Assembly: GCA_942493075.1 (NCBI GenBank)
Contig: OW818681.1
Span: 4,156,964-4,188,963, forward strand
Direction of reading: 5' to 3'
Length of the DNA: 32,000 nt
Origin: an uncultured Verrucomicrobiota bacterium
GTDB taxonomy: Bacteria; Verrucomicrobiota; Verrucomicrobiia; Limisphaerales; UBA8199
Positions 8,185-24,135 of the stretch are shown here, piece by piece. Positions within the stretch are counted from its first letter, which is position 1; each line of letters opens with the position of its first letter. The position numbers and the translations under genes were made by a program. A model generated the notes under the pieces. It made no database searches. It saw only the letters and a list, made by a program, of their open reading frames with translations, and was not told the origin of the DNA.

Positions 8185-10050
8185 TCAAGCTCCATTCGTG
8201 CGTGTGATGAGCCCAAGGTTAGCAAGCGATTGTGTCACAGTCGCCAGCGTGCATACCTCGAAACCAGCTAGTTGGAATGCTTGCTTTTCCTCGGGGCCGT
8301 AACCTCCTTCTAAGACGGCGATGCCTTGCTTCACTTGATTGGATTTGAGTCCATCTGCCGATAGGCGGTAGCGGGCCATGGAAAGGTGTGCGCAAAACTC
8401 CCGCGTCTTATGTCCACAATCGGCTGGCGCCTTCATGCCTGATATGAAAACAGGGATTAATTGGTCCGCCCTGCGGACGCAAAGGCTTACGCGCCAGTTT
8501 CCGGCCTGGTCGCTTTGCGAGCAGTCCGTCACGAGTGTCGGTATTTCCTCGTCCTCTAGAACCGATACGCCATCTGCCCAGCGGCACTTCTTGAAGATAG
8601 CGCGCACTAGTTCTTCTAAGGGATTTATTGCCGATTGTGGGCCAATAATCCTGTGCGTCTTGCGGAGGAGGTAGCTCGTCCTCAGGTTCTGGGTGTCGAG
8701 GTCTTTAGGAATCAGACGGGCGATTGCGCGCAGCAGTAGGGCATATCGTGGCGCACCCTTTATGGGGCGTCTGTTGCTGTAGATCCCACGAATGTCATTG
8801 CGCGTTGCTTTTAGGGTGGCGTCTGAATTGTTGATCGCGGTTACGAGAGGGTAGGTGCCTAGGCCAGTCGCTTCGATTAACATCTCCGCAAACTGATTGT
8901 ACTCGTATGACGGTGTTACGGATGTGTACTGTGCCCAGAGTGCCTTAGCAGAAGCTTGGCGCAGCTTTGTGATGTCCTTTACGGAAGGTGCGCTTTTGAT
9001 TGCTTCCAGTGCCTCTAGGACTTGGGCCGAAGCGGCGAAAAGTGTGCGGGTGCGATCAAGGGCTTCCGAGAGAGCCTCGTGGTTGACCCCCAGGGTGTTT
9101 GCCTTCCGGGCAGCGAGGAAGAGTTCGAGGTCCTCTGAGGGGTGGGCAACAGTTTCGCCTGCCATGCCCTCCTCTATATGCTTGATGAGAAAGGCAAATT
9201 GCCCGTTTCTGTCCTCAATAGGAAGGCGGTGCAGAGCCTTTAGTACCTTGAGGTGGTTTGGGTCTTTAACTTCTATGGTCCATGCTTCTAAGGTCCTAAC
9301 AATCGCGTCGCATGAACCGAGTTCTGGGAACAGGAGACTTACGAGCGCGATTTGGAGCATCGCATTACGCAAACGCTCAAAGTTGTTCGACAAGTGAGTA
9401 TGGAGTTGAATTTTTGAGCAGAAGAGTCTCTCCGACGTCCAAAGGTCGAGTTTAGCATTTTTCGGGAAGGCCGTCGGAGTTAGTGGTGTGCGGATCGAGG
9501 CACGCAGTGGGGCGAGCGAGCCAAGATCGGTTTTGATGCTACGGAGCGCTGCGTGAATCTTATCTGTGCCGGTTACGCGTAGCGACTCGGCCCTGGATAG
9601 GTCTGCTTGTAGTTTCTGGTGGTTGAATAGAACGCATTCGTCGAACAGTTCGCGAAAGGAACGAAGAAAGTCGGGGTACCAACCGGCAGCGCGGTATTCG
9701 TTGCCTGAGAATTCTGCCTCAAATACTACGCATGTGCTCGTTGATTTTGGAATATAGCGTTTGAGGTCACACAGTTCTGAAACGGTTCTCCAAAATTTCG
9801 CGTGACTGGTCTCTTTGCTGTCCCAGTAGCAGACATGAAGGAAGTTCGAAGACGTTGTGTCGACAAGGAAGTCCGGGATAGTATAGATAAGCCGCTTATA
9901 CTGGTGGGGCTTGTGGCAGATTGTCGCGTGCTTGCAGAGGGATTGGCAGTTATGGCGCTCGCGATTGGGCTCGTACTCAATATTTCTGGTGTAAATGCCC
10001 TCGAGCGCCAACCACGTCAGCGCTTCGTAAAAATCAGCTCTGAAGCTCAT
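8185..10050 (-). CDS. Uncharacterised 621-aa protein; N-terminal Cys-rich stretch and possible restriction-endonuclease-like motif
   Basis: Long intact ORF. N-terminus has CQSLCKHATIC then IPDFLV..(x)..FLHVCYWDSKETSHAKFWRTVSELCDLKR, loosely like the PD..x..D/E-x-K arrangement of some REase-fold enzymes. No confident family. Confidence 0.7.
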   Translation of the reverse strand: MSFRADFYEALTWLALEGIYTRNIEYEPNRERHNCQSLCKHATICHKPHQYKRLIYTIPDFLVDTTSSNFLHVCYWDSKETSHAKFWRTVSELCDLKRYIPKSTSTCVVFEAEFSGNEYRAAGWYPDFLRSFRELFDECVLFNHQKLQADLSRAESLRVTGTDKIHAALRSIKTDLGSLAPLRASIRTPLTPTAFPKNAKLDLWTSERLFCSKIQLHTHLSNNFERLRNAMLQIALVSLLFPELGSCDAIVRTLEAWTIEVKDPNHLKVLKALHRLPIEDRNGQFAFLIKHIEEGMAGETVAHPSEDLELFLAARKANTLGVNHEALSEALDRTRTLFAASAQVLEALEAIKSAPSVKDITKLRQASAKALWAQYTSVTPSYEYNQFAEMLIEATGLGTYPLVTAINNSDATLKATRNDIRGIYSNRRPIKGAPRYALLLRAIARLIPKDLDTQNLRTSYLLRKTHRIIGPQSAINPLEELVRAIFKKCRWADGVSVLEDEEIPTLVTDCSQSDQAGNWRVSLCVRRADQLIPVFISGMKAPADCGHKTREFCAHLSMARYRLSADGLKSNQVKQGIAVLEGGYGPEEKQAFQLAGFEVCTLATVTQSLANLGLITRTNGA

Positions 10051-10074: not shown

Positions 10075-10254
10075 TCACAACCGATCTTCAGGTGAATCTG
10101 CGTATTGCACCGGCAACGCCACGCCCTTATGACAGGCAGACAGAAGTCCAGATTCTGCGCCAAACCTATGCAATTCTCGTTTGAATGGCCAGATACCGTG
10201 AAAAGAGATGTTTGACAGTGAGTTGGTCTTGAGTGGGTATGTGGTTGGGTTCAT
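10075..10254 (-). pseudogene. 59-aa ORF resembling the C-terminal tail of the adjacent HerA-like ATPase; possible herA remnant or micro-protein
   Basis: Manual translation gives MNPTTYPLKTNSLSNISFHGIWPFKRELHRFGAESGLLSACHKGVALPVQYADSPEDRL. Compare the HerA tail ...SNDIFPFKRELQVMGIGQAILSASYKGVPLPVQIPEF. ATG at 10254 overlaps the preceding ORF's TGA (ATGA). Confidence 0.5.
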
Positions 10255-10469
10255 TTATTCTTGAGGAATCCCGTAGGAACATACTTGCGCAGGTACTGGC
10301 GGTAGAGAGTTTTGAAGCGTTCTTGCGAACAAGAAAACTTGAGTGTAACCCGCAAGTGTTTTAGAAGGGCAGTGGGCGTCTTTAGGTTCGGACCGTAATG
10401 GTCAATCAGAAAGGCCATGACTTGGTGGTCCTCGAGCGATCGAGGATTGTGTCTGGTATTCGCTTTCAT
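10251..10469 (-). CDS. Small uncharacterised protein, 72 aa from ATG at 10469 (ORF extends to 10559)
   Basis: MKANTRHNPRSLEDHQVMAFLIDHYGPNLKTPTALLKHLRVTLKFSCSQERFKTLYRQYLRKYVPTGFLKNK. Lies between herA and the 621-aa gene in the same orientation. Confidence 0.45.
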   Translation of the reverse strand: MKANTRHNPRSLEDHQVMAFLIDHYGPNLKTPTALLKHLRVTLKFSCSQERFKTLYRQYLRKYVPTGFLKNK

Positions 10470-10564
10470 GGCTTTCAGAAGGAAAGAACGACAGCACGAC
10501 TGAGCCTGCTTTCGTGAGTGATGAGGGCGTCTTACCTTGGCTGTACCTCTACTTCGCATAAATG

Positions 10565-12355
10565 TCAGAATTCCGGAATTTGCACAGGCAACGGCACGCC
10601 CTTGTAGCTCGCCGAAAGTATGGCCTGACCGATCCCCATGACCTGCAATTCCCGCTTGAACGGGAAGATGTCGTTGCTGGCCGTGTGGACAGCGGCCTGG
10701 CGTTCGTCCTCGTTGCCGAGGGCCATGGTAATCTCCGTGTTGATCTGGCTGAGGATGCCTTGGTCAATTTCGGTGACCTGCTGCGAAACGACAGTGAGGC
10801 CGAGGCCGAACTTCCGGCCCTGGCGGGAGATGTCGCGGAAGACGGAACCGAATTTCATCCGGGCCGGATTCAAAATGGAGGGAGCTTCCTCGATGATGAT
10901 ATTGACGGCAGGAAGATCGTTGATGTTCCGCAACGTGCCGTCCGGCCCACGGTAAGGTGAATCCGGCGCGGACAACCGTTCCTTCAGGATGTTTTTCAGG
11001 GTGTCCTGCAGGGGAATATGGCGGTCAATCTCACCTGGTTGGCCGTTTGCGCCGACGAAACTTGGCCAGTCACGCGCGCTCTTGAGAGCCTTGCGAAGCG
11101 CAAAGATGGTGCGGGCAACGACGGTGGTCAGCAGAAACTGTTCGGTCTCGGTCATCAGAGACGTATCCACATCCAGCACCCGCCCACGTTCTAGTGCGAG
11201 GACGATGTCCGCCAACGAGGAACTGTATTGCTGGGCGTTGGGGACAAGGTTGGACCGGTTGCCGCTCAGGAAACCCAACCGGCGGTTGATGCCTGCCAGT
11301 GAGGTTTTGTGAATCACGTTGTCATCAGCGACGACATCGCCATTGAGCACACCGGAGATCCAGTTCTCACCCTGCATATCGCCTATGATCTCGGCGGCAG
11401 CAGACATGATATCGGTGAACTCCATGATGGAGATGATATCCTGCGGGGTGATGTCGCGCCGGTGGAGGCGAACGCGACGGCCGTGGGTGCCGATGACGGT
11501 ATCGGCCTGGATGGCGGTTTCATCACGACAGGAAAGGTAGAAGAAGGGTTCGACAAGGCCGGTGCGTTGCTCGGGGTTCATAGCCGCCACGATGCGGGTA
11601 ATGCCGCCGGGGGAACCGGGTTTCCATTTGGCGAACTCATCGTGCGGGTCCACGGCGAACAGTGAAACCAAACGGTCCTTGGGTCCCCACTGAGCGCGGG
11701 CCGTGCCGAACAGGCGGAGGTTATTGGCGTAGATGCTATCAATGAGCACCATGAGGTTGTTGCTCTTGCCCGTACCCGTCCGACCAAAGATGCCAAGGTG
11801 GTGCGCGAAGTATTCGCCGGGAATTGAGATCCTGACAGTGGACAAGGAATGCTCGCCAGCTAGGAGATTGCCGATGAAAACACCCGTGCCGAGTTGGGAT
11901 TGCAGGATAGCGGCGAGGCAGAGCTCCTGGCGTTGGGCGGCCTGCGGGCCGCCGAAACCAACCTTGTAAACTTTGGTGAGGTGGGCCGGAAGTTTGCGCG
12001 GCGTGCGGAAATGCCAACGGCCGTTTTCATCCACTTCGGCATAGCCAAGCAGAGAACCGGTAAGGCGAAGCAATTTATCGCGGTCGAAGTCATCCGCGTA
12101 AAAGGCATCGGCGAGAGAAATCTCGTTCTTGGCCATGAAGTCCATGTCCTCATCGCGGCGAAGGACGTTGGCGTATTCCGTCATGCGGAACAGGTAAACG
12201 CGGTCGCCGCCACGGTCGGACGGGATGAGAAAAAGGTCGCCGATAGAGGTATCGAGGTTGCGGGCGAATACCGTTATCTGGGTGGTAGAAGCCATGGCCA
12301 GCACGCCGAAAAACTGGTCCTGCGCCAACGTTTGGGTGAGTTCCTGGTAGGTCAT
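10565..12355 (-). CDS. herA: HerA-like ATPase/translocase (HerA/FtsK superfamily), 596 aa
   Basis: HLGIFGRTGTGKSNNLMVLIDS (Walker A), VNIIIEEAPSILNP (Walker B with EE), GLGLTVVSQQVTEIDQGILSQINTEITM, N-terminal HAS-barrel-like region. Directly downstream of a NurA-like gene. Confidence 0.92.
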   Translation of the reverse strand: MTYQELTQTLAQDQFFGVLAMASTTQITVFARNLDTSIGDLFLIPSDRGGDRVYLFRMTEYANVLRRDEDMDFMAKNEISLADAFYADDFDRDKLLRLTGSLLGYAEVDENGRWHFRTPRKLPAHLTKVYKVGFGGPQAAQRQELCLAAILQSQLGTGVFIGNLLAGEHSLSTVRISIPGEYFAHHLGIFGRTGTGKSNNLMVLIDSIYANNLRLFGTARAQWGPKDRLVSLFAVDPHDEFAKWKPGSPGGITRIVAAMNPEQRTGLVEPFFYLSCRDETAIQADTVIGTHGRRVRLHRRDITPQDIISIMEFTDIMSAAAEIIGDMQGENWISGVLNGDVVADDNVIHKTSLAGINRRLGFLSGNRSNLVPNAQQYSSSLADIVLALERGRVLDVDTSLMTETEQFLLTTVVARTIFALRKALKSARDWPSFVGANGQPGEIDRHIPLQDTLKNILKERLSAPDSPYRGPDGTLRNINDLPAVNIIIEEAPSILNPARMKFGSVFRDISRQGRKFGLGLTVVSQQVTEIDQGILSQINTEITMALGNEDERQAAVHTASNDIFPFKRELQVMGIGQAILSASYKGVPLPVQIPEF

Positions 12356-12358
12356 ATT

Positions 12359-13549
12359 CTAGATGCCAGTCATGTGAACCTGCTCGGGGTCTTCGAGAAA
12401 TGCGCCCCGCAGCAACCCTTCCTGCTGGGCGTACTGAAGGAGCAAATCGCGAGCGGTTTTGCGCTCCTGTTTGGTGAGGCTGGCGCGCCGATGGGCGGCG
12501 TGCATGGGATACGGGTAACCGTAACTGCGCACCTCATGACAGGTGAAGTCCAGCTCCTCAAAGAACCGTGCTTCTTTTTCATCGTCGCCGGCCAAATGGG
12601 TCTGCCACCAGGCAGCGTCCACGTCCACGCGCATGGGAAAGGCCGTGGCCTCGAACTTGAACAGGTAAGACACACTGAGTTTGGGTGGGATTTCCCGGTC
12701 TTTGAGGAAAGAGAGGGGCGTGTCACCTAAGGCCTCGGAGGGGAGACGCAAAAACCAGTGCGATTTGAGACCGTGTTTATCGCGGGCCAGCCGACCGATG
12801 AAATCGCCGTTGGGGATGTTGTGTGATTTGCACAACGCGACGATGCCGGTGTTTTGTTCGTTCGCCTTGGTGATCAGGTAGCGCTTCAAGAGTTCAGGCA
12901 GATAAGGGGAATCGCCGAGAAGGAAATAGACCAAGGACGTATCCATGATCAGATACCTGGGTTTCTGCTGAAGGAGATGAATGGCCATACCCAATTCCGC
13001 CAGCGAACGGAGGAGGTAAGCGTGCGTCGCAACCTGCGAAGCATGAGAGATGGCGAAGTTGGCCCAAGTCACCTGCGACGGCTTGAGCGACTTGCCAAAC
13101 TGAGAGTAAACGGCGCAATAGTCCGACTCTTTGACCAATTCTTCTAGGCCCAGTCCGACGAGCGACTCTAAAAATGTTTTGTAAGCATCGGTCAACGCCT
13201 TGGGTTGATCCTGCAAAACAATGTGGCGTTTCAGCAGTGGCCCAAGACCACCCACCGCCGCCATCTTGCTTTGACGGGCACTCTGGGTATCGTAGGTGAC
13301 GCCGGCCGCGGTGGCGAAATGAACGAACACATCATCTTGTTGGATGATGGGGAACTCTCCTGAACCATCCACGGCACAAATGCGAAAATCCTGATCGAGG
13401 GTCGTGGTGTGCCGATACGGTCGGATGCGCTGAGCAAGAGTGTTGATCTCCTTATCCGTGGGTTTTGCGCCCTCGATGGCTCGCTTGAACTGCAGAATTG
13501 CTGCTCGCGAGGAGTCCAGCAAAGCCCGGTCTAGGAGGTCGAAGTCCAT
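12359..13549 (-). CDS. nurA: NurA-domain nuclease-like protein, 396 aa
   Basis: FRICAVDGSGEFPIIQQDDVFVHFATAAGV matches the NurA VDGSG motif. YLIMDTSLVYFL and adjacency to HerA support the call. The gap to the HerA start is 3 bp. Confidence 0.8.
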   Translation of the reverse strand: MDFDLLDRALLDSSRAAILQFKRAIEGAKPTDKEINTLAQRIRPYRHTTTLDQDFRICAVDGSGEFPIIQQDDVFVHFATAAGVTYDTQSARQSKMAAVGGLGPLLKRHIVLQDQPKALTDAYKTFLESLVGLGLEELVKESDYCAVYSQFGKSLKPSQVTWANFAISHASQVATHAYLLRSLAELGMAIHLLQQKPRYLIMDTSLVYFLLGDSPYLPELLKRYLITKANEQNTGIVALCKSHNIPNGDFIGRLARDKHGLKSHWFLRLPSEALGDTPLSFLKDREIPPKLSVSYLFKFEATAFPMRVDVDAAWWQTHLAGDDEKEARFFEELDFTCHEVRSYGYPYPMHAAHRRASLTKQERKTARDLLLQYAQQEGLLRGAFLEDPEQVHMTGI

Positions 13550-13559
13550 GATTACATGC

Positions 13560-15776
13560 TCAGTTTGGTGTTCCTGTGAGTTTGCTGAAAAGTCGGAAGA
13601 ACCACCAGGTATTGTGAAACCCCCTCCGCCGGTTGCGATTGTTGCGGCGGAAGATCACAACGTCGATACCGGTGGATTTGCAAACGGCGCAGGGACAATT
13701 GCGCCAGGGTGCATCTTCAAGAAGGCGGCGATAATGAGGCTCGTTGCGAGGGTCGCCCCCCATGAGTTGGTCATATGCGACCACCTGTTTGAGGGTCGAG
13801 TCGATGTCGAGTTTGCCTTGATCAAAAGCGCGTAACGCCTGAAGTGATTTCTGCTCCTCCTTGCGCAGTCGTTCGAGGGTCCACCCTTTCTGAGTTAACT
13901 TGGATGCCTTGGCCGTGAACGAATCGCCACCCTCGCGTTGGAGTGGAGGCACGCGAAGTGCCGCGTAACGCCATTTCTCCTCCAACTCTGCTTCTTCGCC
14001 ATTGCTGGTTTTGGGATTGAGCGTGGCGATAAACCGGTCCACGTCACCAACGTAGTAGTTTGAAGTGGCAGACAACCACGCCTGGCGGAGAAAACGAGCG
14101 CTATCAATGCTGTTCACCCCGGCATCAGAAAAGGCCGTGATGGCTTCAGGGCGGGCGACGCCGAAAAGGTGAATTTGAACGCCCGGTTTACGAATACGAT
14201 TTACGCCTTCGAGCACCGAAAGGATCTCGGTTGTCTTCGAGCGGACCAATCCGCCAAGAGCAATGTATTTGTATCCCATGTCCTGCTGCTGCTTGAACAT
14301 CTCGACTTGGGATTCGACGTCGTATCCCTGACAGCCAGCTATCGGAGTAAAATTGGATCCGCGCTTTTTGTGGGATTGGATAAAATCTTTGGCGTTATCG
14401 AGCGTGATTTTCCAGCGGCGCTTGCCTTCTGTTAAGTCATCTTCCTCATACGCTGCGAGGTGGTCGCGTTTCTCAAATAGGTCACGCGGATAGGTCCGCC
14501 CCTTGACCAAAGGGAGGCCTTCTTTCGTCAGACGTTCGAACTCATCTTTGCTGATGCGCTCTTCGCCACCGCCGGGTTTGAGGATGGCATAGACGGGGCG
14601 ACTCAGATGGGCGGGAATGATAAGGTGATCGATGGAGACGCCGTAGTCGAAATCCAATGATTCATAAAAATCCAATGTCTCCTCGGTCTCGTAGGGCGGG
14701 ACTTCCTCATCAATATAGTTGAATGCGCCACAATCGCCCATGACCGGGAAGTTGCGAGGCACGCGCACATGACGATGGATGCCAATCTTGCGGATGCGCT
14801 CTTTCTTGGTCTGATTATCTTCGATGACAGACTTGCTTACGAGAATGCCATCGTAGTTGGGCGATGGATAAATTTCATGGGCGTAAACATCATGAACGTA
14901 GGGGTCGCGGCCCTCTGTGATGCCGTCGCAGAGAAAATCATAATCCGGATCAACGCGGTCATCCCACTCGGGAATGAAGTATTTCATCCGAGCCTTGGGG
15001 CGGGGAGTGAAGAAGGTGAAGCGCTGGCGCTCCTGCTCCACCAGGTGTGGCGCTTTGGAGGTTTTGACAGATTCGCTTTTGGGTTGATCGAAAAACGCGA
15101 GGACATCGGTAGCCGGGTCGCGCAACTTCTGGGGCAAGTGCGGATCTCCAGCGAGCAACTTCAACAGGCGCGCCGCGAGTTCGCCTTTGAGCCCAACCAG
15201 CCCGCAGGAAAAGCGTTTGGCCTCCGGGTTGGAGAGGGTGACGACGCGGAGGTTGGGCAAGCGCGGAATCTTCTTGGCCGGTCCCTGACCGCAGAATAAA
15301 AGGGTGAGGCCACCGAACTTCACACTGGCATCGAGTTGGCAGGCTTGCAGGTAATTGTCGCCGAGCAAGATCAGTCCCAGATCGTAGGCCTGTGCGACGG
15401 TGTTTCGGAAATCCTGCGGGATATTGAGGGTATCGGCCCAGGAGCGGATCTCTTTGCTCCCCATGGTGGCAAAGGTGCACTCGTAGGGGGCGATCTTGCG
15501 ATTCTCGGGGATTAGGCCGTAGCCGGCGCTGAGAATGAAGAGTTGATGGTTGATTGTTGAGAGTTGAGAGACAGAACTGAGAGACTGGATGCCGCGCATG
15601 AGGCGGACGTGCTGCTCACCAGAGTACAGTTGCCCTGCGGGGGTCAGAAACTGCTTAAGTTCCCGTTCCTTTTGCCGCACGTGCGCAGGTCCCTTCTGAA
15701 AATCCGCGAGGCTGATGGAATTCTCAGGCGCATGGACCTTTTCGCCTGTGCAGGATGTAATGATTAGTAGCCTCAT
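13560..15776 (-). CDS. dpdA: DpdA-like (tRNA-guanine transglycosylase superfamily) 7-deazaguanine DNA transglycosylase candidate with N-terminal DUF6884/YaaA-like domain
   Basis: N-term MRLLIITSCTGEKV...LYSG...FILSAGYGLIPENRKIAPYECTF. The TGT-like core has FPVMGDCGAFNY (cf. SDSGGFQ), YKYIALGGLVRSKT (cf. GGL(A/S)xGE), GVNSIDSARFLRQAW (candidate nucleophile Asp), and a zinc-like cluster WRNCPCAVC...RRRGFHN (CxCxxC...H). The ORF extends to a TTG at 15785; ATG at 15776 is preferred. Confidence 0.85.
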   Translation of the reverse strand: MRLLIITSCTGEKVHAPENSISLADFQKGPAHVRQKERELKQFLTPAGQLYSGEQHVRLMRGIQSLSSVSQLSTINHQLFILSAGYGLIPENRKIAPYECTFATMGSKEIRSWADTLNIPQDFRNTVAQAYDLGLILLGDNYLQACQLDASVKFGGLTLLFCGQGPAKKIPRLPNLRVVTLSNPEAKRFSCGLVGLKGELAARLLKLLAGDPHLPQKLRDPATDVLAFFDQPKSESVKTSKAPHLVEQERQRFTFFTPRPKARMKYFIPEWDDRVDPDYDFLCDGITEGRDPYVHDVYAHEIYPSPNYDGILVSKSVIEDNQTKKERIRKIGIHRHVRVPRNFPVMGDCGAFNYIDEEVPPYETEETLDFYESLDFDYGVSIDHLIIPAHLSRPVYAILKPGGGEERISKDEFERLTKEGLPLVKGRTYPRDLFEKRDHLAAYEEDDLTEGKRRWKITLDNAKDFIQSHKKRGSNFTPIAGCQGYDVESQVEMFKQQQDMGYKYIALGGLVRSKTTEILSVLEGVNRIRKPGVQIHLFGVARPEAITAFSDAGVNSIDSARFLRQAWLSATSNYYVGDVDRFIATLNPKTSNGEEAELEEKWRYAALRVPPLQREGGDSFTAKASKLTQKGWTLERLRKEEQKSLQALRAFDQGKLDIDSTLKQVVAYDQLMGGDPRNEPHYRRLLEDAPWRNCPCAVCKSTGIDVVIFRRNNRNRRRGFHNTWWFFRLFSKLTGTPN
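15541..15590 (-). repeat. Degenerate TTGA(G/A)AGT-type heptad repeat inside the dpdA-like gene
   Basis: agttgatggttgattgttgagagttgagagacagaactgagagactggat, read in frame as IQSLSSVSQLSTINHQL. Confidence 0.7.
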
Positions 15777-15991
15777 GAACAACAAAACAACACATTCTCA
15801 AGAACTTAGAGTTACATAGAGTATTTGTGCAGGAGGCACAAGGATAAGCGGGCGAAGACCCGTAAAACTAGTTAACCGAAACAAGGATGATTAAGGAAGC
15901 TGGTTGGAGATCGCAAGGAGAATAGAATCGTTTGCTGACATTCACCTACCAGAATGGCCCGACAACGACGAAATAGAAGAAACAAATGCGT

Positions 15992-16663
15992 CTAGGGCTG
16001 TAGAAGCTTATTTTGGTCCAAAAGTTTCTGCAAAATGCGAGTTGCTAACTCGGTAGCAGGATCAAACGAACACGGCAGGGTTCCCGCAGCGGCGCAACCC
16101 GCAACGTCCTCGGGGCGGTAGCGAACCCCACCATTCTTTTGCAGCCGCTGGACGTGCTCTTCAGAGACCCCATCTTGCAGGAGTGCTTCGCATATGGATT
16201 TAACCCATTCCGCGTCACCCTCTCTTTCTGCGGGCCAATCTTGGAGAACTGCCAGATCAATTCCGGCATATCTGAACACCGCCAAAACGAACGTTGCACA
16301 TGTAAGACCGACTCCGGTGTCACCCAAGAGCCACCGTCCGGTTTCATCATCGAAGCAGTCGGATGGCGCGCTGAAGCCGTAAGGCATACCAGCGCGATTG
16401 GCTTTAAGAACCTGACGACAGCGGACGGCTACTTGCAGAGCCCTTACTGTGTGGATTGGGGGATCTACCCAAAGGTAATGTGGCTTGGGATTCCGCTCAC
16501 GGAGGTCATGATGCCATGCCAAGTCAGCAAGTTTGATCTCATCCTTTAAATCTGTTTGGAACAGGATTCCTAAATGCTGCTGGCCATTTCCCATTAAGGC
16601 AATGGCTACTGCAGCATTCCGAATCTCATTAAATCCACGCTCCTCCTGTGAGTAGACCCGCAT
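15992..16663 (-). CDS. Uncharacterised 223-aa protein, possible cysteine-hydrolase (NlpC/P60 or YiiX-like) fold
   Basis: PYGFSAPSDCFDDETGRWLLGDTGVGLTCATFVLAVFRYAGIDL resembles a Cys active-site helix ([D/N/T]C[S/T/A]xFV), followed by VRYRPEDVAG. Weak motif evidence only. Confidence 0.5.
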   Translation of the reverse strand: MRVYSQEERGFNEIRNAAVAIALMGNGQQHLGILFQTDLKDEIKLADLAWHHDLRERNPKPHYLWVDPPIHTVRALQVAVRCRQVLKANRAGMPYGFSAPSDCFDDETGRWLLGDTGVGLTCATFVLAVFRYAGIDLAVLQDWPAEREGDAEWVKSICEALLQDGVSEEHVQRLQKNGGVRYRPEDVAGCAAAGTLPCSFDPATELATRILQKLLDQNKLLQP

Positions 16664-16687
16664 TTTGCTTGATACTCCTGTGCTGGC

Positions 16688-17362
16688 CTAGGGCTCAAGC
16701 CCTGTGAGCAAATCATCATCCCACTCCCTGCGCTCTTTGATGAGAGACTCAGCTTGCCGGAACAAGTGCGCGCGCGATGGCAGCTTCGATTTTGCGGGTA
16801 GCGTCGCGGTCAACAAACCCACAAGCAAGTTGGTGGAGAGTGTAGCATAATTCGTGTTTGCAACTATAGAATCCACGTCGGCAAATCGACCCCTACGAAA
16901 GAATTGATCTATGCGTTCATAAAGCAGGTCCAAAGCCGCATGCACGCGACCCTGTTTGTCTAGCCTGATCATCGGCTCAAAGAACTGGCTCCCTGAACGG
17001 TCCGGCGTTTCCGTGCAAACCATCGAGCGCTTAGGTAAATACCTGCGCTCGTACCCCAACTCCAAGAGGCGTGAGGCGTGGAAAATGTTGTGAGACAATT
17101 GTTTTGCGCAGAAGCCGAAGTCTTCATCCTTGGTGAAGACCTCAAAGACATCTTCATCTGGGAGTGCGCAAGTGCAAAATTGGGAGAAAACAGATAGGTA
17201 ATTCTCCTTAGCGGCCTGCTGTTGACGTCCCGGATTTAAGAAAACGACACGGCCAGTGGGTTGTGTTTCTCCGGAACGAGTTCTTCTGGTGGAATCCCGC
17301 CAGAGATCTTTGACAGACAAAGGAAAAAATTCTCTTGTGTAAGATATCGGAACCTCATTCAT
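16688..17362 (-). CDS. Conserved-looking uncharacterised protein, 224 aa from ATG at 17362
   Basis: MNEVPISYTREFFPLSVKDLWRDSTRRTRS... with GGAGG (cctcc at 17373-17377) about 11 nt upstream. Tightly packed with the flanking genes. Confidence 0.65.
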   Translation of the reverse strand: MNEVPISYTREFFPLSVKDLWRDSTRRTRSGETQPTGRVVFLNPGRQQQAAKENYLSVFSQFCTCALPDEDVFEVFTKDEDFGFCAKQLSHNIFHASRLLELGYERRYLPKRSMVCTETPDRSGSQFFEPMIRLDKQGRVHAALDLLYERIDQFFRRGRFADVDSIVANTNYATLSTNLLVGLLTATLPAKSKLPSRAHLFRQAESLIKERREWDDDLLTGLEP

Positions 17363-18053
17363 TGTTACCTTGCCTCCCTGGAATAATTGTTGGGATTTTT
17401 GCCTTAGCTTGGAGTTCACTCTGAGCAGTCCTCGATTTAAGCATTGCGCGCTCGCACTGCTTCATGAGGAGCTGGATGTCATCCTCGTCAATCGAGAGGC
17501 TGAGGACGTGGTCTCCTTGGGGGTCGTCGTAACGGACAATGAGCGTGTGCGAAATGACCGTGCCACGCAGCTGTGTGGCGTCGTCACTGAATACAGGACG
17601 GATATCAGTGAGAATGCGGGCGCGCTGGAGGAGTTCAGCATGCTCATACGAAAGATCGAGGGCTTTGGCTGAGAGATAAATAATCTCTGAGTTGAAGAGG
17701 TTCTTAACTTCTCGCTCTACACCTTTCCAAGCCTCAAATTGCTCGTGTGTCCAACCAGACTCAGACGGGTCCAACGCAAGTCGGAGAGCGCCGAAAATCT
17801 GATTAGGGTTGATATTCAGATTCCTTAGCACCCCGTGCAGTGCTAGCAATTGGCGAAGGATGGGCTCACTTGCAGACCCCGAGGCGGGCCCTAGAGCAGC
17901 GGCGATCGCCTCCTGCAGTTTACCGGGCGAAACTGGCTCTTGAGGCAAGCTGTTGAGGTGTTGAGTCAGCCTTTGGACGGTTTCTGAGCCAAGTTCAGAA
18001 ATCAATGCCAAATCGGCCTTATGCTGCGCTTGCAGCCTAATCTGGGGTTCCAT
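17355..18053 (-). CDS. Uncharacterised protein, 232 aa; likely first gene of the dpdA-herA-helicase operon
   Basis: Intact ORF MEPQIRLQAQHKADLALISELGSETVQRL...TVISHTLIVRYDDPQGDHVLSLSIDEDDIQLLMKQCERAMLKSRT. It overlaps the next start. A 244-bp intergenic gap lies upstream. Confidence 0.65.
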   Translation of the reverse strand: MEPQIRLQAQHKADLALISELGSETVQRLTQHLNSLPQEPVSPGKLQEAIAAALGPASGSASEPILRQLLALHGVLRNLNINPNQIFGALRLALDPSESGWTHEQFEAWKGVEREVKNLFNSEIIYLSAKALDLSYEHAELLQRARILTDIRPVFSDDATQLRGTVISHTLIVRYDDPQGDHVLSLSIDEDDIQLLMKQCERAMLKSRTAQSELQAKAKIPTIIPGRQGNNE

Positions 18054-18083
18054 GTCAGTTATTAAGCATGTCGGTTTAGCCGG

Positions 18084-18111
18084 ATATTACAGTTATTGCG
18101 ACTTCACGCAA
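18084..18111 (-). promoter_or_regulatory. Candidate sigma-70-like promoter upstream of the 232-aa gene
   Basis: Minus strand reads TTGCGT-(16 nt)-TAATAT in the 244-bp gap. A weak match to the consensus, read by eye. Confidence 0.25.
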
Positions 18112-18297
18112 GAGCATGCATGATTTTTCAGAGAACTGCTCTAAATGACCAACAGACAGCTTCATCTCTCGTCAGTTAAGTATTTGGCATAAAGAAAGTC
18201 AAGGCCCTGAAGTTGACCGCCCCAGAGCGAAATTCAAGCTCATTTCCGCACTTTCATACGTAATCGTGGCTCATGAACCGGCTTTGTCAATCCGAGT

Positions 18298-19137
18298 CTA
18301 ATACCTATCCTCGTTCAAGCTCCTGTCGAGTTGCGCTGAGGCAACTATGGCGAAGGCTGAGTGATTGTGGATGCTTTCCTGGTTAACGGCGCGGACTTCG
18401 AACCAGGTGATGCGTTTGTCTTTCTTTAAGAGGTGGGCGGCGTTGCGGACGACGTCCTCGACGAAGACTGGGTTATCGAAAGCTTGCATGGTGACGTGGC
18501 GTTCGTCAGGACGTTTTAGAAGGGGATAGACGGGAGCGGATGCGGAACGTTCGGCGATATCAATGAGTTCCTCGATCCAGATGAGTTCCCATAGACCGTT
18601 CGTGCGCTTGGGACGGACCGTGACGGTGACCTGTCCCCGCTGATTGTGGGCACCGTAGTCACTGATTTCTTTGGAACAGGGGCAAAGGGTGGTGACTGGC
18701 ACTTTGACACGAAGAAGGAAGTCGTCCGTCTTTCCGTTGGACTGGCCGATAAAGGTGCAGCGGTAGTCCATAGGTGCCTGGGACCCAGACACGGGTGCGG
18801 TGCGGGTTAGGAAGTATGGAAATTCGACCTCGATGTGGGCGGCTTCCGAATCGAGATGCTGCTTAAGATCATGGAGGATGGCAGGCAGGGTTCGCATGGT
18901 TACCTCGCCCTGGTGCCGGCTGAGAATTTCGAGGAACCGGCTCATGTGGGTGCCTTTGAAGTGGTGCGGGAGGCTTACCGACATGGAGATAGTGGCGACC
19001 GTTTGTTGCTTTTGATTCTGACGGTCGAGGACGGCAATAGGAAAAGAGAGGTCGCAGATGCCAACGTTATCTATTGGCACGCCGCGGCGGTCTTTGGTTT
19101 TCTGGATGTCGGGTAACTGGCGAGCGGGAGATTTCAT
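18298..19137 (-). CDS. folE2: GTP cyclohydrolase IB (FolE2/MptA family)
   Basis: LPDIQKTKDRRGVPIDNVGICDLSFPIAV, TMRTLPAILHDL, VKVPVTTLCPCSKEISDYGAHNQRGQVTVTVR, MQAFDNPVFVEDVVRN, EVRAVNQESIHNHSAFA. Confidence 0.95.
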   Translation of the reverse strand: MKSPARQLPDIQKTKDRRGVPIDNVGICDLSFPIAVLDRQNQKQQTVATISMSVSLPHHFKGTHMSRFLEILSRHQGEVTMRTLPAILHDLKQHLDSEAAHIEVEFPYFLTRTAPVSGSQAPMDYRCTFIGQSNGKTDDFLLRVKVPVTTLCPCSKEISDYGAHNQRGQVTVTVRPKRTNGLWELIWIEELIDIAERSASAPVYPLLKRPDERHVTMQAFDNPVFVEDVVRNAAHLLKKDKRITWFEVRAVNQESIHNHSAFAIVASAQLDRSLNEDRY

Positions 19138-19140
19138 GAA

Positions 19141-19596
19141 TCAATCCCAGTATTCGGCCCAGGAGCAACTGGTTTCCCAAAGGCGAACTTTCACTACGCG
19201 AACCGTGGAACGTAAAGGATAGGGTGCGGCGGGGTCGGCGGCGTAAGTCGCGAGCTTGGCTTTGACGACGTCATGGATTGTCTTGGCCATGACTTCGGTA
19301 GTGGGATCCATGCATTCAAAAGCCACCACGCGATCACCGAACGCAGCCTTCAGGGGTGTGAAGTTGGGGTCCTGAGTGTTGACGCAGATCGCGTGATCGA
19401 GTGTTTTAAGATAATCGTTAAGGCTGGCTTTGAGAGCCTTGAAATCACAGACCATCTCGTTGGAATCGAGCGTGTCCGCTTCAATTACGACTTCAACTTT
19501 GCGGCTGTGGCCGTGGGGGAATTTGCACAGGTCGGGGTGCTTTGAAAGCATGTGTCCGTTCTCGATTTCGAAGGTTTTACAGATGCGGTATGGCAT
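19141..19596 (-). CDS. queD: 6-carboxy-5,6,7,8-tetrahydropterin synthase QueD-like
   Basis: ICKTFEIENGHMLSKHPDLCKFPHGHSRKVEVVIEAD (Cx3HGH), MVCDFKALKASLNDYLKTLDHAICVN, VRLWETSCSWAEY. Confidence 0.93.
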   Translation of the reverse strand: MPYRICKTFEIENGHMLSKHPDLCKFPHGHSRKVEVVIEADTLDSNEMVCDFKALKASLNDYLKTLDHAICVNTQDPNFTPLKAAFGDRVVAFECMDPTTEVMAKTIHDVVKAKLATYAADPAAPYPLRSTVRVVKVRLWETSCSWAEYWD

Positions 19597-20289
19597 TTAG
19601 GTTCCTCGTGTGTGGCCAAAGAGTTCGACGTGAAGACGGTTGCAATAGCGGTAGCCATGGCGTTTGCAGACGTCCAAAAGGGTTTCGGCTCGACCGCGAA
19701 GCACGGCTGTTGATGTGCCCTCGGGCATGAGCAGGATTTTTGCTGGCGGGACTTTTTGACGGAGGTCGTGCAGGAGGGATTGGATTTCCTGAACATCCGA
19801 GGCGGAGTTGACTACGAACTTGAGCTGATATGTGTAGTGATCGAGCCACTCGGAGATTACGGCTGGGTGCCGCCTTAGGTTTTCATGCTTCTCGCGCCAA
19901 GCCGTCGGCAGCCGGTTATCCGGAGCTGAGTTGCTGAGCTTTGGACTGAGTGACGCGAGATCGCAGATGATGCCATTCGGCGGGACGGTTGCCGCCGTCT
20001 CGATGGTTATATGTTTCCCTGCCTGGCGAAGAGCTGCTGCGAGTTCGTGAATTCCCTTGGCGATCATCGGCTCGCCGCCGGTTAGAACGCAATGCTGAGC
20101 GGGGAAAGAATCCACCTTGCGGAGAATTTCGTCCGGAGCCATGTCTTTGCCTTCCGGGTCCCACGAGGCGTACATGGTGTCGCACCAGTTGCAGCGGAGG
20201 TTGCAACCGGAGGTCCGAATAAAAACGGACGGGACGCCCGTGAGTTCGCCTTCGCCCTGGATGGAATAGAATATCTCCGATATAAGCAT
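19597..20289 (-). CDS. queE: 7-carboxy-7-deazaguanine synthase (radical SAM) QueE
   Basis: MLISEIFYSIQGEGELTGVPSVFIRTSGCNLRCNWCDTMYA gives radical SAM Cx3Cx2C, with VLTGGEPMIAKGI. The track ORF extends to 20562, but the ATG at 20289 fits QueE. Confidence 0.95.
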   Translation of the reverse strand: MLISEIFYSIQGEGELTGVPSVFIRTSGCNLRCNWCDTMYASWDPEGKDMAPDEILRKVDSFPAQHCVLTGGEPMIAKGIHELAAALRQAGKHITIETAATVPPNGIICDLASLSPKLSNSAPDNRLPTAWREKHENLRRHPAVISEWLDHYTYQLKFVVNSASDVQEIQSLLHDLRQKVPPAKILLMPEGTSTAVLRGRAETLLDVCKRHGYRYCNRLHVELFGHTRGT

Positions 20290-20290
20290 T

Positions 20291-20995
20291 TCAGGCCCCG
20301 ATGGTGGGAGCAGGCTTAGGCGGCAGTGGAGATGTTTCTGCGTAGGTGGTTGGGTCAGAGAGACCGGCGAGCATGAACGCCTCCCGACGCTCGACGCAAG
20401 TGCCGCAGGTGCCGCAGTGTATTGCTCCGCCCTTGTAGCAGGACCAGGTTTTGGAAAAATCGACGCCGAGCTCGTAGCCGCGGCGGGCGATTTCCGCTTT
20501 GGTGAAGCGAATGAAGGGGCGGAGAATCTGGATTTGGGCGTAGGTTCCAAGGCGGATGGCATCGGCCATGGCTTTCATGAAATCCTCGCGGCAGTCTGGA
20601 TAGATGGCGTGGTCTCCGGCGTGGGCAGCTATGACGAGGCCCTGGGCCTCAATCGATTCGGCAAACCCGCCAGCAATTGAGAGCATGATGCCGTTGCGAA
20701 AGGGAACAACGGTCTGCTTCATCGTTTGCTCCTCATAGTGACCGTCGGGGACAGTGCCACCTGACTTGAGGAGGTCAGATTTGAAAAGCTGGGAAACGAA
20801 GTCGAGTTGGATGGTACGATGGGAGATTCCGAGTTGGTCGCAGTGGTAGGCAGCGAAAGGGATCTCCCTGTGGTTGTGCTTGGAACCGTAGTCGAAGCTG
20901 AGGGCGCCGACAACTTGATAGGCCTGATTGGCTTCGTAGAGGGCGGCAACCGAGTCCATCCCACCGCTAACAAGAACTACGACTTGGGTTTTCAT
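20291..20995 (-). CDS. queC: 7-cyano-7-deazaguanine synthase QueC
   Basis: MKTQVVVLVSGGMDSVAALYEA (PP-loop SGGMDS), GALSFDYGSKHNHRE, VPFRNGIMLSIAGGFAESI, C-terminal CYKGGAIHCGTCGTCVERREAF zinc site. ATG at 20995. Confidence 0.96.
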   Translation of the reverse strand: MKTQVVVLVSGGMDSVAALYEANQAYQVVGALSFDYGSKHNHREIPFAAYHCDQLGISHRTIQLDFVSQLFKSDLLKSGGTVPDGHYEEQTMKQTVVPFRNGIMLSIAGGFAESIEAQGLVIAAHAGDHAIYPDCREDFMKAMADAIRLGTYAQIQILRPFIRFTKAEIARRGYELGVDFSKTWSCYKGGAIHCGTCGTCVERREAFMLAGLSDPTTYAETSPLPPKPAPTIGA

Positions 20996-20999
20996 CGCA

Positions 21000-21440
21000 T
21001 CATGAATGGAGAGTAGTGACCGGGTCTGGGTGCTCTGCAGTGACGGTAAGGGATAAGCCTCCTCGCGGAACAAATTTGCCTTCGATCTTTATGCGCCGTG
21101 GGCGGCAAGCCTTAACCAGGTCGTCGAGGACGCTGTTTATAACCTGCTCGTTGAACGAGTGCACGTTGCGGTACGAGGACAGGTAGAGCTTGAGGGACTT
21201 GGTCTCGATGCAAAGCTTGTCGGGGATGTAATCTACGAGAATCTCTGCGAAATCGGGCTGGCCGGTGACCGGGCAGAGGGAGGTAAAATCGGGACAGTCG
21301 AGACGGATGGAATAGTCGCGGTTCGGTTTGGGGTTTGGGAACGTTTCGATCGTGGCCGACTGCGGAGACTTGGGGAACGCCGCCTCGGAGTTTCCAAGAA
21401 GCGTCAGACTGGCGTATTTCTTATTTCGGGACCGTTTCAT
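21000..21440 (-). CDS. queF: NADPH-dependent 7-cyano-7-deazaguanine reductase QueF (type I, short)
   Basis: LDCPDFTSLCPVTGQPDFAEILVDYIPDKLCIETKSLKLYLSSYRN (catalytic Cys plus the ExKSLKLY QueF motif), AEHPD. Likely ATG at 21440 (146 aa). Confidence 0.92.
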   Translation of the reverse strand: MKRSRNKKYASLTLLGNSEAAFPKSPQSATIETFPNPKPNRDYSIRLDCPDFTSLCPVTGQPDFAEILVDYIPDKLCIETKSLKLYLSSYRNVHSFNEQVINSVLDDLVKACRPRRIKIEGKFVPRGGLSLTVTAEHPDPVTTLHS

Positions 21441-21593
21441 TTCGTGGCCGTCAGCATGGCATTTTTCTTCGCAAGAGAAAATTGAAATCGCGCGAGGAAT
21501 GGAGGGTGGGCATACGGGCGGGAGGAGGGGGCAGTGCGACAGGGGGACGGGGGTAGGGTGTGACATTTGCTGGCATAACCGGTAGGATCGGGT

Positions 21594-22649
21594 ATGCGAC
21601 AGAAGCGACTCGGCCCAAAACAGGCGGCACGCGGGAAGAATGAGGGGGATTTGTGGGCGCATGGTTACGGTCGGGCGGCGATGGAACGGATGATGCGGAT
21701 TCATCGAAAGATCGAGGATCGCGAATACCCGAACTGCACCAAGATGTCGGCGGAGTTTGAAGTCAGCGTGCGGACGCTGAAGCGGGATATCGAGTTCATG
21801 AGGGATCGGTTGGAGTTGCCGATCGCTTTTGATGTGCCGAAGAATGGCTACTTTTTCACCAAGTCGGTGCCGCATTTCCCGAGGGTTCCCCTGACTGAAC
21901 GGGAGATTGTGGGGTTGTTCGTAGCGCAAAAGACGATCGCGCAGTATCAGGGGACTTCACTTCAGCCGGTTCTGGATTCCGCTTTCCGGAAAATGACGGC
22001 GCAATTGGATGATAGCGTGCAGTTCTCGCTTGATGGGGTGGATGAGGTGATGTCGATCCGTCCGTTTGCACCTGGGGATGCGGAGCTGGAGACGTTTGAG
22101 ATCCTGACCCGAGCGGTTCGCGAGCGGCGCGTGGTGCGGTTTGTGTATCGGAAGCATGGGGAGCAGAAGCAACTGCAGAAGTGTGTGCATCCGTATCGGG
22201 TGGCTTACGTGAATAATCAGTGGACGCTTTTTGCGCGTGACCCTAAGGCGGGTGCGCTGGTGCGGAAGTTCATCCTGGCCCGGCTGAGCAAGCCGGAGTT
22301 GTCGGCGGAAAAGTTTAGCGTTTCTGAGCGGTTCGATCTGGACAAGGAGTTGAGTGGCAGCCTGGGGGTGTTCAAGGGGAAGGATGATTACGAGGTGGTG
22401 GTGGAGTTCGATGCCTGGGGTGCGGATGATGTCCGGGGCCGGCTCTGGCATCCGAGCCAGGAGTTGACCGATCACCCAGGGGGCGGGCTTACCTTAAAGA
22501 TGCGTTTGAACAGTTTGGAGGAGGTGGAGCGGTGGGTGCTCGGTTATGGGAGGCATGCGACGGTTGTGGGGCCGGCGGAGCTGAGGGAGAGGGTGCGGGG
22601 TGTGGCCAGCGATTTGGTGAAGAGGTATGGGGGAAAAGCTAAAAGCTGA
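21594..22649 (+). CDS. WYL-domain transcriptional regulator (DeoR/YafY-like HTH plus WYL), 351 aa
   Basis: RMMRIHRKIEDREYPNCTKMSAEFEVSVRTLKRDIEFMRDRLELPIAFD (HTH_11-type), AVRERRVVRFVYRKHGEQKQLQKCVHPYRVAYVNNQWTLFARD (WYL-like), then the WCX region. Confidence 0.92.
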   Translation: MRQKRLGPKQAARGKNEGDLWAHGYGRAAMERMMRIHRKIEDREYPNCTKMSAEFEVSVRTLKRDIEFMRDRLELPIAFDVPKNGYFFTKSVPHFPRVPLTEREIVGLFVAQKTIAQYQGTSLQPVLDSAFRKMTAQLDDSVQFSLDGVDEVMSIRPFAPGDAELETFEILTRAVRERRVVRFVYRKHGEQKQLQKCVHPYRVAYVNNQWTLFARDPKAGALVRKFILARLSKPELSAEKFSVSERFDLDKELSGSLGVFKGKDDYEVVVEFDAWGADDVRGRLWHPSQELTDHPGGGLTLKMRLNSLEEVERWVLGYGRHATVVGPAELRERVRGVASDLVKRYGGKAKS

Positions 22650-23660: not shown

Positions 23661-24116
23661 TTAGTCTTCGTCGGGTAGCATGACGGTGATGGCCGGGGCT
23701 GGGTTGTCGATGTCGAGCGGGCCTGCGGTGGCGATCAGCTTTGTCAGGCGGGCGGGTTTGTTATCGGAGTTGCGGACGTAAAGCGCCACAGGGAGCCTTC
23801 GGCTGGTTGATGGTTGAGTGTTGAAAGTTGAATGTTTCAGGATGGCAAAGCGGAGCATCCAAACGACGTCCCACAAGCGGCCGGCTTCATCTTGGGCAGT
23901 CACTCCAGGCGGAACGGCAACGCATTCTTCATAAACTCCGCGTGTGATGAAGACGGGGAAGCGGATACCGGCTTCCTGTGCGGTCTTGGTGACGTCGATT
24001 TGGAAGCCGTCGGCGATGGCCTGGGCGCGGGTGTAGGTGTAGATGAGTTCAAAGTTGAAGGTTGAAGGTTGATCGTCCGGATCACTAAGGGGCGGTTGAG
24101 GGTCTTGAGAGTTCAT
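23661..24116 (-). CDS. DUF6573-like family protein, 151 aa
   Basis: FELIYTYTRAQAIADGFQIDVTKTAQEAGIRFPVFITRGVYEECVAVPP...DEAGRLWDVVWMLRFAI...LPVALYVRNSDNK. Confidence 0.65.
   Translation of the reverse strand: MNSQDPQPPLSDPDDQPSTFNFELIYTYTRAQAIADGFQIDVTKTAQEAGIRFPVFITRGVYEECVAVPPGVTAQDEAGRLWDVVWMLRFAILKHSTFNTQPSTSRRLPVALYVRNSDNKPARLTKLIATAGPLDIDNPAPAITVMLPDED
23804..24072. repeat. Two heptad-type repeat tracts inside the DUF6573-like gene (about 23804-23836 and 24045-24072)
   Basis: ggttgatggttgagtgttgaaagttgaatg and gagttcaaagttgaaggttgaaggttga. They encode HSTFNTQPST and QPSTFNFEL. Confidence 0.7.
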
Positions 24117-24135
24117 AGAGGGGATTGGTTAGGGG

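Follow-up and report, generated by a model that had tools for sequence, protein, structure and literature searches.

Among the systems described so far, the canonical Dpd clusters (dpdA-K) come closest to the locus reported here. Their DpdC protein converts preQ0 already present in DNA into 7-amido-7-deazaguanine (ADG) independently of DpdA and DpdB, an activity known for Salmonella DpdC only. DpdC was formerly assigned to DUF328 and now belongs to DUF6884, the family in which a genome-mining study places it, and it is always linked to dpdA. In the 32,000-nucleotide stretch of an uncultured Verrucomicrobiota bacterium analyzed here (contig OW818681.1; the whole stretch is called the window), this linkage is covalent. 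A complete open reading frame (ORF) of 738 amino acids at positions 13560-15776 of the minus strand joins a DpdC-like (DUF6884) domain to DpdA, as identified from the reading frame itself, Pfam, NCBIfam, PADLOC and an AlphaFold2 model. We conclude that this fusion probably modifies DNA as a bifunctional enzyme within a restriction-modification island of the Dpd (7-deazaguanine) type. As in canonical Dpd systems, precursor genes, a DNA transglycosylase, a DpdC-type domain and helicases and nucleases are found alongside one another. In contrast to those systems, the window carries NurA-like, HerA, 621-amino-acid, UvrD and PD-(D/E)xK proteins, none of which is a PADLOC Dpd component. DpdB and DpdD-K were looked for and not found, and the locus is not a canonical Dpd system.

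A second point of comparison is the BREX-related capture (BRC) system, which combines HerA/FtsK with a tRNA-guanine transglycosylase (TGT) family protein, has no DpdB and explicitly no DpdC homologue, and further contains PglZ, a BrxC-like ATPase, a STAND NTPase, DUF4007 and GNAT proteins (PMC12839542). The window is similar in that a TGT-family enzyme and a HerA/FtsK ATPase occur without DpdB. We considered whether the locus is a BRC system and rejected this assignment, as the component sets differ and the BRC-specific proteins are not in the window. BRC was the only published system with TGT and HerA that our literature search found. The same search returned no paper on a DpdC-DpdA fusion or on an association of one with NurA-like, HerA, UvrD and nuclease genes, with a mention in Thiaville 2016 or Yuan 2018 being possible. 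That two known partners of one pathway are fused is in itself no surprise, and databases contain many copies of the fusion. The more novel part is its DpdB-less context with an unrelated restriction module, which apparently has not been described.

The fusion ORF begins with ATG and its product with MRLLIITSC. Starting from a TTG at 15785 would lengthen the product by three amino acids; in a 64-sequence alignment of homologues the consensus opens M-x-I-L-I-I-T-S-C at the fusion's own Met, and thus the ATG is the correct start. An initial annotation, made from the sequence alone, had described the product as a DpdA-like protein with an extra N-terminal DUF6884/YaaA-like domain, and Pfam, NCBIfam and AlphaFold2 all bear this out. 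In Pfam, DUF6884 (PF21818) matches residues 75-147 (E 3e-9, 37.6 bits against a cut-off of 30) and TGT (PF01702) matches residues 449-565 (E 6e-8), while YaaA (PF03883) stays below its gathering score (23.7 bits versus 29.6). The NCBIfam YaaA model NF002543 likewise falls far below its cut-off (24.5 versus 204), and the DpdA equivalog NF041059 scores 419.3 bits against a cut-off of 200. PADLOC matches its DpdA model to the fusion (E 2e-114) and, over residues 2-175, several DpdC models (best E 3e-10) together with a candidate-system protein, PDC-M57A. The N-terminal motifs CTGEK, LSAGYG and PYECTF start at residues 9, 82 and 97, and the TGT hallmarks quoted in the initial annotation are all present, with GDCGAF at residue 347, IALGGL at 505, SIDSARF at 556, CPCAVC at 694 and RGFHN at 718.

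The AlphaFold2 model of the full protein, built on 64 homologues, has a mean predicted local distance difference test score (pLDDT) of 87.9 and consists of two confident domains, residues 1-230 and about 260-735. Its predicted template-modelling score (pTM) is 0.63 because the relative orientation of the two domains is undefined. Between them lies a linker of residues 231-260 (14997-15086, minus strand), which is disordered around residues 232-248 (pLDDT <50) and ends where the alignment with Salmonella DpdA begins, at residue 261. The first 200 or so residues had been read as something other than TGT; they do form a separate folded domain, the length of which is about 230 residues. Modelled by itself, this domain reaches a pLDDT of 94.9 and a pTM of 0.92, and is therefore not an unstructured extension.

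The DpdA (DNA-guanine transglycosylase) domain spans residues 261-738 (13563-14996, minus strand) and was delimited by phmmer, Foldseek and a residue map. The only PDB sequence match in phmmer is 7ui4_A, the Salmonella enterica Montevideo DpdA, which aligns with residues 261-727 at 33% identity (E 1.9e-74). Superposition of the model confirms a TGT barrel, with 7UI4 matched at E 1.7e-36 and a template-modelling (TM) score of 0.89 on the target (Foldseek). The tRNA TGTs trail at about 1e-10, some 26 orders of magnitude worse. In Salmonella DpdA, D95 is the general acid/base, D130 binds the base, D256 is the nucleophile and F99 provides stacking (PMC10164549). Residues were mapped by aligning the fusion with an Enterobacter DpdA 95% identical to that of Salmonella, which places these four at D348, D383, D558 and F352; the zinc ligands are C694, C696, C699 and H721. 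All of these positions, F352 included, are invariant across the 64-sequence alignment. His181 of Salmonella DpdA corresponds to Gln483, and since three of four canonical DpdAs also have Gln here, we do not regard this as a defect. Based on homology and on these intact residues, the C-terminal domain is a genuine DpdA and is predicted to carry out guanine exchange.

The two enzymes thus have in common the Asp triad, the stacking Phe, the Cys3His zinc site and a large Ins8-type insertion before RNRRRGFHN. Relative to the Salmonella enzyme, the fusion adds the 230-residue DpdC-family N-terminal domain, the linker and an insertion of about 53 residues, and has no DpdB nearby. The insertion (residues 388-443; 14448-14615, minus strand) appears as a gap in the 7ui4 alignment, follows the strand bearing D383, and is modelled with high pLDDT as a beta-hairpin and helix. 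It is subclade-specific, being present in 26 of the 64 aligned homologues.

It is highly improbable that the protein is something other than a restriction-modification DNA modifier, namely a variant transglycosylase acting on tRNA or a fusion created by faulty assembly or annotation. RefSeq and JGI do call its relatives 'tRNA-guanine transglycosylase' or 'queuine tRNA-ribosyltransferase' (for the fusions, the RefSeq label is simply "tRNA-guanine transglycosylase DpdA"). In contrast, the tRNA TGT models score far under their cut-offs (TIGR00432, 26 versus 350; TIGR00449, 17 versus 47.6), the best structural match is a DNA enzyme, and the neighboring genes encode DNA nucleases and helicases. Furthermore, a search of 5.8 billion proteins returned 1439 matches, of which the top 120 are 663-768 amino acids long (with one exception of 478), are 42-82% identical to the fusion and nearly all contain both PF21818 and PF01702. 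With the architecture shared by its top homologues and recurring in hundreds of independent assemblies, the fusion is neither a one-off nor a frameshift artefact.

The N-terminal domain (residues 1-230; 15087-15776, minus strand) was analyzed with Pfam, PADLOC, hhalign, AlphaFold2 and Foldseek, and combines DUF6884 membership with a YaaA-like fold. The initial annotation had treated it as an unassigned extra; DUF6884 is in fact the Pfam family of DpdC, which leads us to view the domain as a short, divergent DpdC-like module on sequence grounds. The Pfam update describes DUF6884 as a distant relative of YaaA that occurs alone or fused and has conserved CxxxK and LSAxxG motifs (PMC11701544), and both are kept here as C9TGEK13 and L82SAGYG87. 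The top PDB structural match is E. coli YaaA (5caj_A), with a Foldseek probability of 0.99 and a TM score of only 0.45, and the model shows the alpha/beta 'cantaloupe' fold typical of YaaA-like proteins. Against viral models, Foldseek matched annotated phage DUF6884 proteins at a probability of 1.0. Searching the sequences of the PDB with a profile made from the N-domain alignment gave nothing meaningful. E. coli YaaA (DUF328) and Bacillus subtilis YfjM (DUF6884) belong to the same fold class, and the DUF6884 motifs of YfjM are present in the N-domain. Unlike the fusion, these two are standalone proteins, and their links are to oxidative stress or the binding of DNA lesions rather than to deazaguanine clusters.

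To compare the N-domain with DpdC directly, we recovered reference canonical DpdCs from annotated plasmids; the PADLOC DpdC model recognizes them at E 1.5e-105 (A. vitis, 308 amino acids) and E 6e-142 (Enterobacter). The N-domain profile aligns with A. vitis DpdC over 187 columns covering the whole N-domain (hhalign probability 96.4%, E 1.4e-9), and the PADLOC DpdC match covers profile positions 3-187 of 299. The CxxxK, LYxG, SxGxG and P/S-Y-x-x-T motifs of DpdC are found in the N-domain too. In a joint alignment, C9, K13, Y51, G53, S83, G85, G87, Y98, T101, W113 and Y142 are kept across short N-domains, canonical DpdCs and the long fusions described below, while E99 and H56 are conserved in the short form only. 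BLAST relates the window's N-domain to canonical DpdCs with E-values down to 4e-7 (Acetobacter DpdC), and canonical DpdCs of different lineages match one another at E 6e-9 to 6e-7. With values of the same order, the divergence between N-domain and DpdC is comparable to that among canonical DpdCs. Compared with a canonical DpdC of about 300 residues, the N-domain is about 25% identical and has no C-terminal module of about 90 residues, and the activity of the short form is a prediction. It would be expected to work like canonical DpdC, yet it is not a member with the full architecture.

Two metagenome-assembled genomes, one from Hodarchaeota and one from Clostridiaceae, encode 795-amino-acid fusions (L076:1582-3969 and L079:2687-5071). 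Over their first 330 or so residues these match canonical DpdC along its whole length (E 1e-19 with the Enterobacter protein), and the DpdA part is 45-48% identical to that of the window. The C-terminal module of about 90 residues is present in these proteins as it is in canonical DpdCs, and judged by their alignments they are a second, 'long' form of the fusion. Locus L076 also has UvrD and PD-(D/E)xK genes downstream of the long fusion. A split form occurs on a Shewanella contig, in the order QueD, a 233-amino-acid DUF6884 protein, a 305-amino-acid TGT, a 414-amino-acid NurA-like protein, HerA, a 587-amino-acid protein, UvrD and PD-(D/E)xK. In canonical clusters dpdC lies directly upstream of dpdA or of dpdB-dpdA, an order that matches the fusion, and no separate DpdC-like gene was found within 10 kb of any fusion examined. 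In a rough neighbor-joining tree the fused DpdAs group together in a single clade that excludes four canonical plasmid DpdAs, and the long fusions nest beside the window's protein. The tree is only indicative; it suggests that the fusion event is old.

In species-representative genomes we found 373 loci with relatives, and about 78 of the best 80 are full-length fusions of the short type. These are spread over Cyanobacteriota, Bacillota, Chloroflexota, Planctomycetota, Verrucomicrobiota, Bacteroidota, Desulfobacterota, Acidobacteriota, Deinococcota, Myxococcota and Pseudomonadota. Among 2.9 million viral contigs there were only two full-length copies. A profile search with the N-domain in 1.84 billion representative proteins gave 2288 relatives at E<=1e-3 and 405 close ones at E<=1e-30, the latter being a mix of standalone proteins of about 230 residues and fusions of about 650-740. 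One standalone homologue (226 amino acids, 47% identity) adjoins an integrase gene on Pelobacter propionicus plasmid CP000483 (L004:10001-10681) and has no DpdA within 10 kb, and thus a short DUF6884 protein can exist apart from a transglycosylase. We also noted short TGT/DpdA paralogues of 305-316 residues (L085:12963-13913, L090:10311-11258, L091:6159-7082 and L005:2988-3905). They adjoin the fusion in Paenibacillus and on cyanobacterial plasmids, in Shewanella such a short TGT is the only DpdA, and in the neighbor-joining tree neither the canonical nor the fused DpdA clade includes them.

The context of the fusion was compared across 86 loci of its family. The order fusion, NurA-like, HerA, a protein of about 580-720 residues, UvrD and PD-(D/E)xK is kept in 23 loci, down to 42% identity. 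UvrD stands beside the fusion in 25 of the 86 loci, in two context classes, and is accompanied by PD-(D/E)xK in 24. The second class is cyanobacterial and consists of the fusion, a conserved 279-amino-acid protein, a DGQHR (DndB-like) protein, UvrD and a PD-(D/E)xK nuclease. In locus L088, for instance, the 279-amino-acid protein, which has no family match, is encoded at 13316-14155 (plus strand) and the DGQHR/DndB-like protein on the opposite strand at 14152-15249. This class is complementary in its distribution to the NurA-like/HerA class. In Candidatus Uabimicrobium, canonical DpdE, DpdF, DpdG and DpdH follow directly downstream of the fusion, and no DpdB or DpdC was found among the tested ORFs upstream. 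Hymenobacter combines the fusion with a UvrD helicase and a canonical DpdB (E 1e-138), and in Paenibacillus and on cyanobacterial plasmids the fusion occurs with DEAD/DEAH helicases as well as the short TGT paralogue. As it is joined to differing modules across lineages, the fused enzyme behaves as a portable modification cassette within a modular Dpd-like family.

These contexts bear on the possibility that the N-domain mainly binds or opens DNA, has no chemistry of its own, and lets DpdA work without DpdB. Consistent with such a role, tblastn with four DpdB/DGQHR queries gave no match in either the window or the 23 HerA-type loci, PADLOC gave no DpdB match in the window, and YaaA, the nearest solved fold, is described as a DNA-binding protein. 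However, fusions co-occur with DGQHR/DpdB proteins in cyanobacteria and Hymenobacter, and the N-domain is therefore not a simple replacement for a DNA-handling partner. Additionally, the near-invariance of Cys, Lys, Ser and Tyr across sequences that are about 25% identical points to an active site, and canonical DpdC, the closest characterized relative, is itself an enzyme and does not depend on DpdA or DpdB for its action. We therefore consider a purely DNA-handling domain quite unlikely, and the suggestion in the initial annotation that the domain might serve DNA recognition is weakened by how strictly the domain's putative active-site residues are conserved, as well as by the co-occurrence with DpdB-like proteins.

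The five genes of the conserved module lie downstream of the fusion on the minus strand. A putative, divergent NurA-like nuclease of 396 residues (12359-13549) follows the fusion gene after 10 bp and is proposed from Pfam, a PDB profile and synteny. Of 19 orthologues, 11 match NurA in Pfam, at E 2.5e-6 for the best, but the window's own protein stays under the cut-off of 21 with 15.3 bits (E 0.015). In the PDB profile search with the family, NurA 2ygk ranks first (E 1.1) and has a GYPYP motif in common with it. In a locus with a relative 72% identical (L001), an extra 603-amino-acid gene separates the fusion from the NurA-like gene, and a 281-amino-acid methyladenine-glycosylase-like gene (L001:9177-10022; PF03352, E 1.4e-9) overlaps the fusion start. 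Three bp beyond the NurA-like gene of the window comes a HerA/FtsK-type ATPase of 596 residues (10565-12355), which matches PF01935 (E 5.5e-12), HerA_C and PADLOC HerA models. The next gene of the module encodes a 621-amino-acid protein (8185-10050) that is by position the equivalent of the post-HerA gene of about 580-720 residues in related loci, and that has no Pfam, NCBIfam, PADLOC or PDB profile match. In an alignment (A4) this positional family shows 13-42% identity and few invariant residues, and its members could be fast-evolving sensors or nucleases. The invariants, D60, K85, R88, D137, K548 and E551, lie near both ends. A basic ORF of 102 residues (10251-10559, minus strand) sits in the 514-bp gap between the HerA gene and the 621-amino-acid gene; in related loci this gap is usually 0-70 bp, and no counterpart of the small ORF was seen. 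The module ends with a UvrD/PcrA-type superfamily 1 helicase of 753 residues (5633-7894; PF00580, E 1e-44) paired with a PD-(D/E)xK nuclease of 328 residues (4695-5681; PF12705, E 2e-17). No DpdD-K was found in the window; its genes instead match PADLOC models for HerA, GajB/UvrD, DruK-like PD-(D/E)xK and TmtA.

Upstream of the fusion, also on the minus strand, lies a complete preQ0/preQ1 operon of five genes (18298-21440), assigned with Pfam and NCBIfam after correction of start codons. It encodes FolE2 (18298-19137), QueD (19141-19596), QueE (19597-20289), QueC (20291-20995) and a unimodular QueF (21000-21440). We considered the amidinotransferase QueF-L for the QueF gene, which opens the operon, and rejected it, since the protein has the catalytic Cys, the NADPH-type motif ETKSLKLY and a TIGR03139 score of 161 bits against a cut-off of 87, and is a true preQ1 synthase. 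Among the 86 loci, QueC adjoins the fusion in 30, QueE in 28 and QueF in 6. The supply of preQ0 varies, with QueC, QueD, QueE and FolE2 in many loci and a YhhQ/Vut-type transporter in their place in locus L003.

Taken together, these genes suggest a pathway of four steps. From the gene content, FolE2, QueD, QueE and QueC would convert GTP to preQ0. The DpdA domain, with its strong homology and intact catalytic residues, would then swap guanine in double-stranded DNA for preQ0 by the double displacement of TGTs, with D558 as the nucleophile, D348 as the general acid/base, D383 contacting the base and the zinc site being structural. Next, as its family membership would predict, the N-domain, tethered by a flexible linker of about 30 residues, would flip out the inserted base and process the group at its position 7. 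Most likely the nitrile is hydrated to an amide, which converts preQ0 in DNA (dPreQ0) to ADG in DNA (dADG) as canonical DpdC does, probably at a catalytic center formed by the invariant Cys9 and Lys13 of the CxxxK motif. In the last step, suggested by conserved synteny, the NurA-like protein, HerA, the protein of about 600 residues, UvrD and PD-(D/E)xK would attack unmarked DNA and so stand in for DpdD-K of the canonical system. In the absence of DpdB, insertion would be either independent of it, as in phage DpdAs, which insert the base autonomously, or aided by another ATPase of the cluster. The idea that one polypeptide couples a DNA-directed activity to base exchange is supported, although what is coupled are two known pathway partners and not a new pairing.

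For the DpdC-like step in particular, we infer the activity from the family, the shared putative active-site residues, the gene order, the split and long relatives and the lack of a separate DpdC. Several observations weigh against this scheme. Salmonella DpdA requires DpdB, a DGQHR/ParB-like ATPase, which the window does not have. The N-domain has an identity of about 25% to DpdC, and the alignment stops at DpdC residue ~220, leaving out the conserved C-terminal module. Three ORFs of 223, 243 and 232 residues between folE2 and the fusion (15992-18053, minus strand) have no Pfam, NCBIfam or PADLOC matches and no counterparts in the 86 related loci; as they are not conserved elsewhere, co-transcription of the que genes with the fusion is uncertain, and they may be an insertion that separated the que genes from the operon of the fusion. 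For the downstream genes, only synteny suggests a part in restriction. Finally, with a true QueF at the head of the upstream operon, preQ1 could be what is supplied, and this base offers no nitrile for hydration.

This last point leads to a further explanation, in which the N-domain is catalytic but carries out a reaction other than that of DpdC. It could act on preQ1 or another 7-deazaguanine in DNA, or be a base-flipping hydrolase or repair-type protein like B. subtilis YfjM, and the mark would then not be dADG. Such a view accommodates the intact QueF of the window and its occurrence beside the fusion in other loci, the short N-domain without the DpdC C-terminal module, the short-form-specific E99 and H56, and the breadth of DUF6884 at E<=1e-3, other members of which are proposed to bind DNA lesions. 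In contrast, QueF is missing from most loci while QueC and QueE occur frequently, the N-domain has the same core motif residues as DpdC, and no separate DpdC accompanies the fusions even beside canonical DpdE-H or DpdB. We therefore judge a different chemistry unlikely and favor nitrile-to-amide conversion by the N-domain, as its family membership suggests.

More tentatively, the fusion could be the writer of a DpdB-independent subtype of 7-deazaguanine restriction-modification, in which the downstream module, unrelated to DpdD-K, senses and destroys unmarked DNA, and the fusion serves as a portable cassette combined with at least four restriction modules. We put this broader proposal forward as a possibility that falls somewhat short of probable. 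If it holds, there would be a one-protein route to 7-deazaguanine DNA marks without DpdB, and with it a simpler tool to write dPreQ0 or dADG. The fusion would also serve as a natural 'Rosetta-stone' case for DUF6884 domains of the DpdC family working right where the base is inserted. Furthermore, Dpd-type self-marking would be modular, with the writer joined to DpdE-H, to DGQHR with UvrD and nuclease, to short TGT paralogues or to the NurA-like/HerA set. Published dpd genome mining demanded both dpdA and dpdB and would thus miss loci like that of the window, and since the same writer occurs in varied modules, surveys with this requirement miss some of the diversity of deazaguanine defence. The conserved Cys and Lys offer a tractable entry to the catalytic mechanism of DUF6884.

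Other genes of the window are less closely tied to the fusion. The Tiamat protein TmtA (1531 residues, a sacsin-like ATPase with NOV_C; 97-4692, minus strand; PADLOC PDLC03969, 1497.6 bits) is encoded on the same strand as the PD-(D/E)xK gene and starts 2 bp after it, and is probably a neighboring defence gene. TmtA-like SACS/NOV_C genes lie directly upstream of the fusion in loci L002 and L016, with weaker matches near L019 and L021, and the adjacency may reflect more than coincidence within a defence island. A scan of 13300-22000 for promoters and terminators gave counts near chance. Divergent from queF is a regulator with WYL and WCX domains (21594-22649, plus strand; PF13280, PF25583). It is not conserved in the 86 related loci, and its membership in the system is uncertain. 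Beyond it are a RadC-like JAB gene, a DUF6573 gene and a further PD-(D/E)xK ORF (coordinates 23661-24657 on the minus strand and 31089-31976 on the plus strand). These genes, and the RadC genes found next to the Shewanella and Pelobacter loci, suggest that the region belongs to a mobile or defence island.

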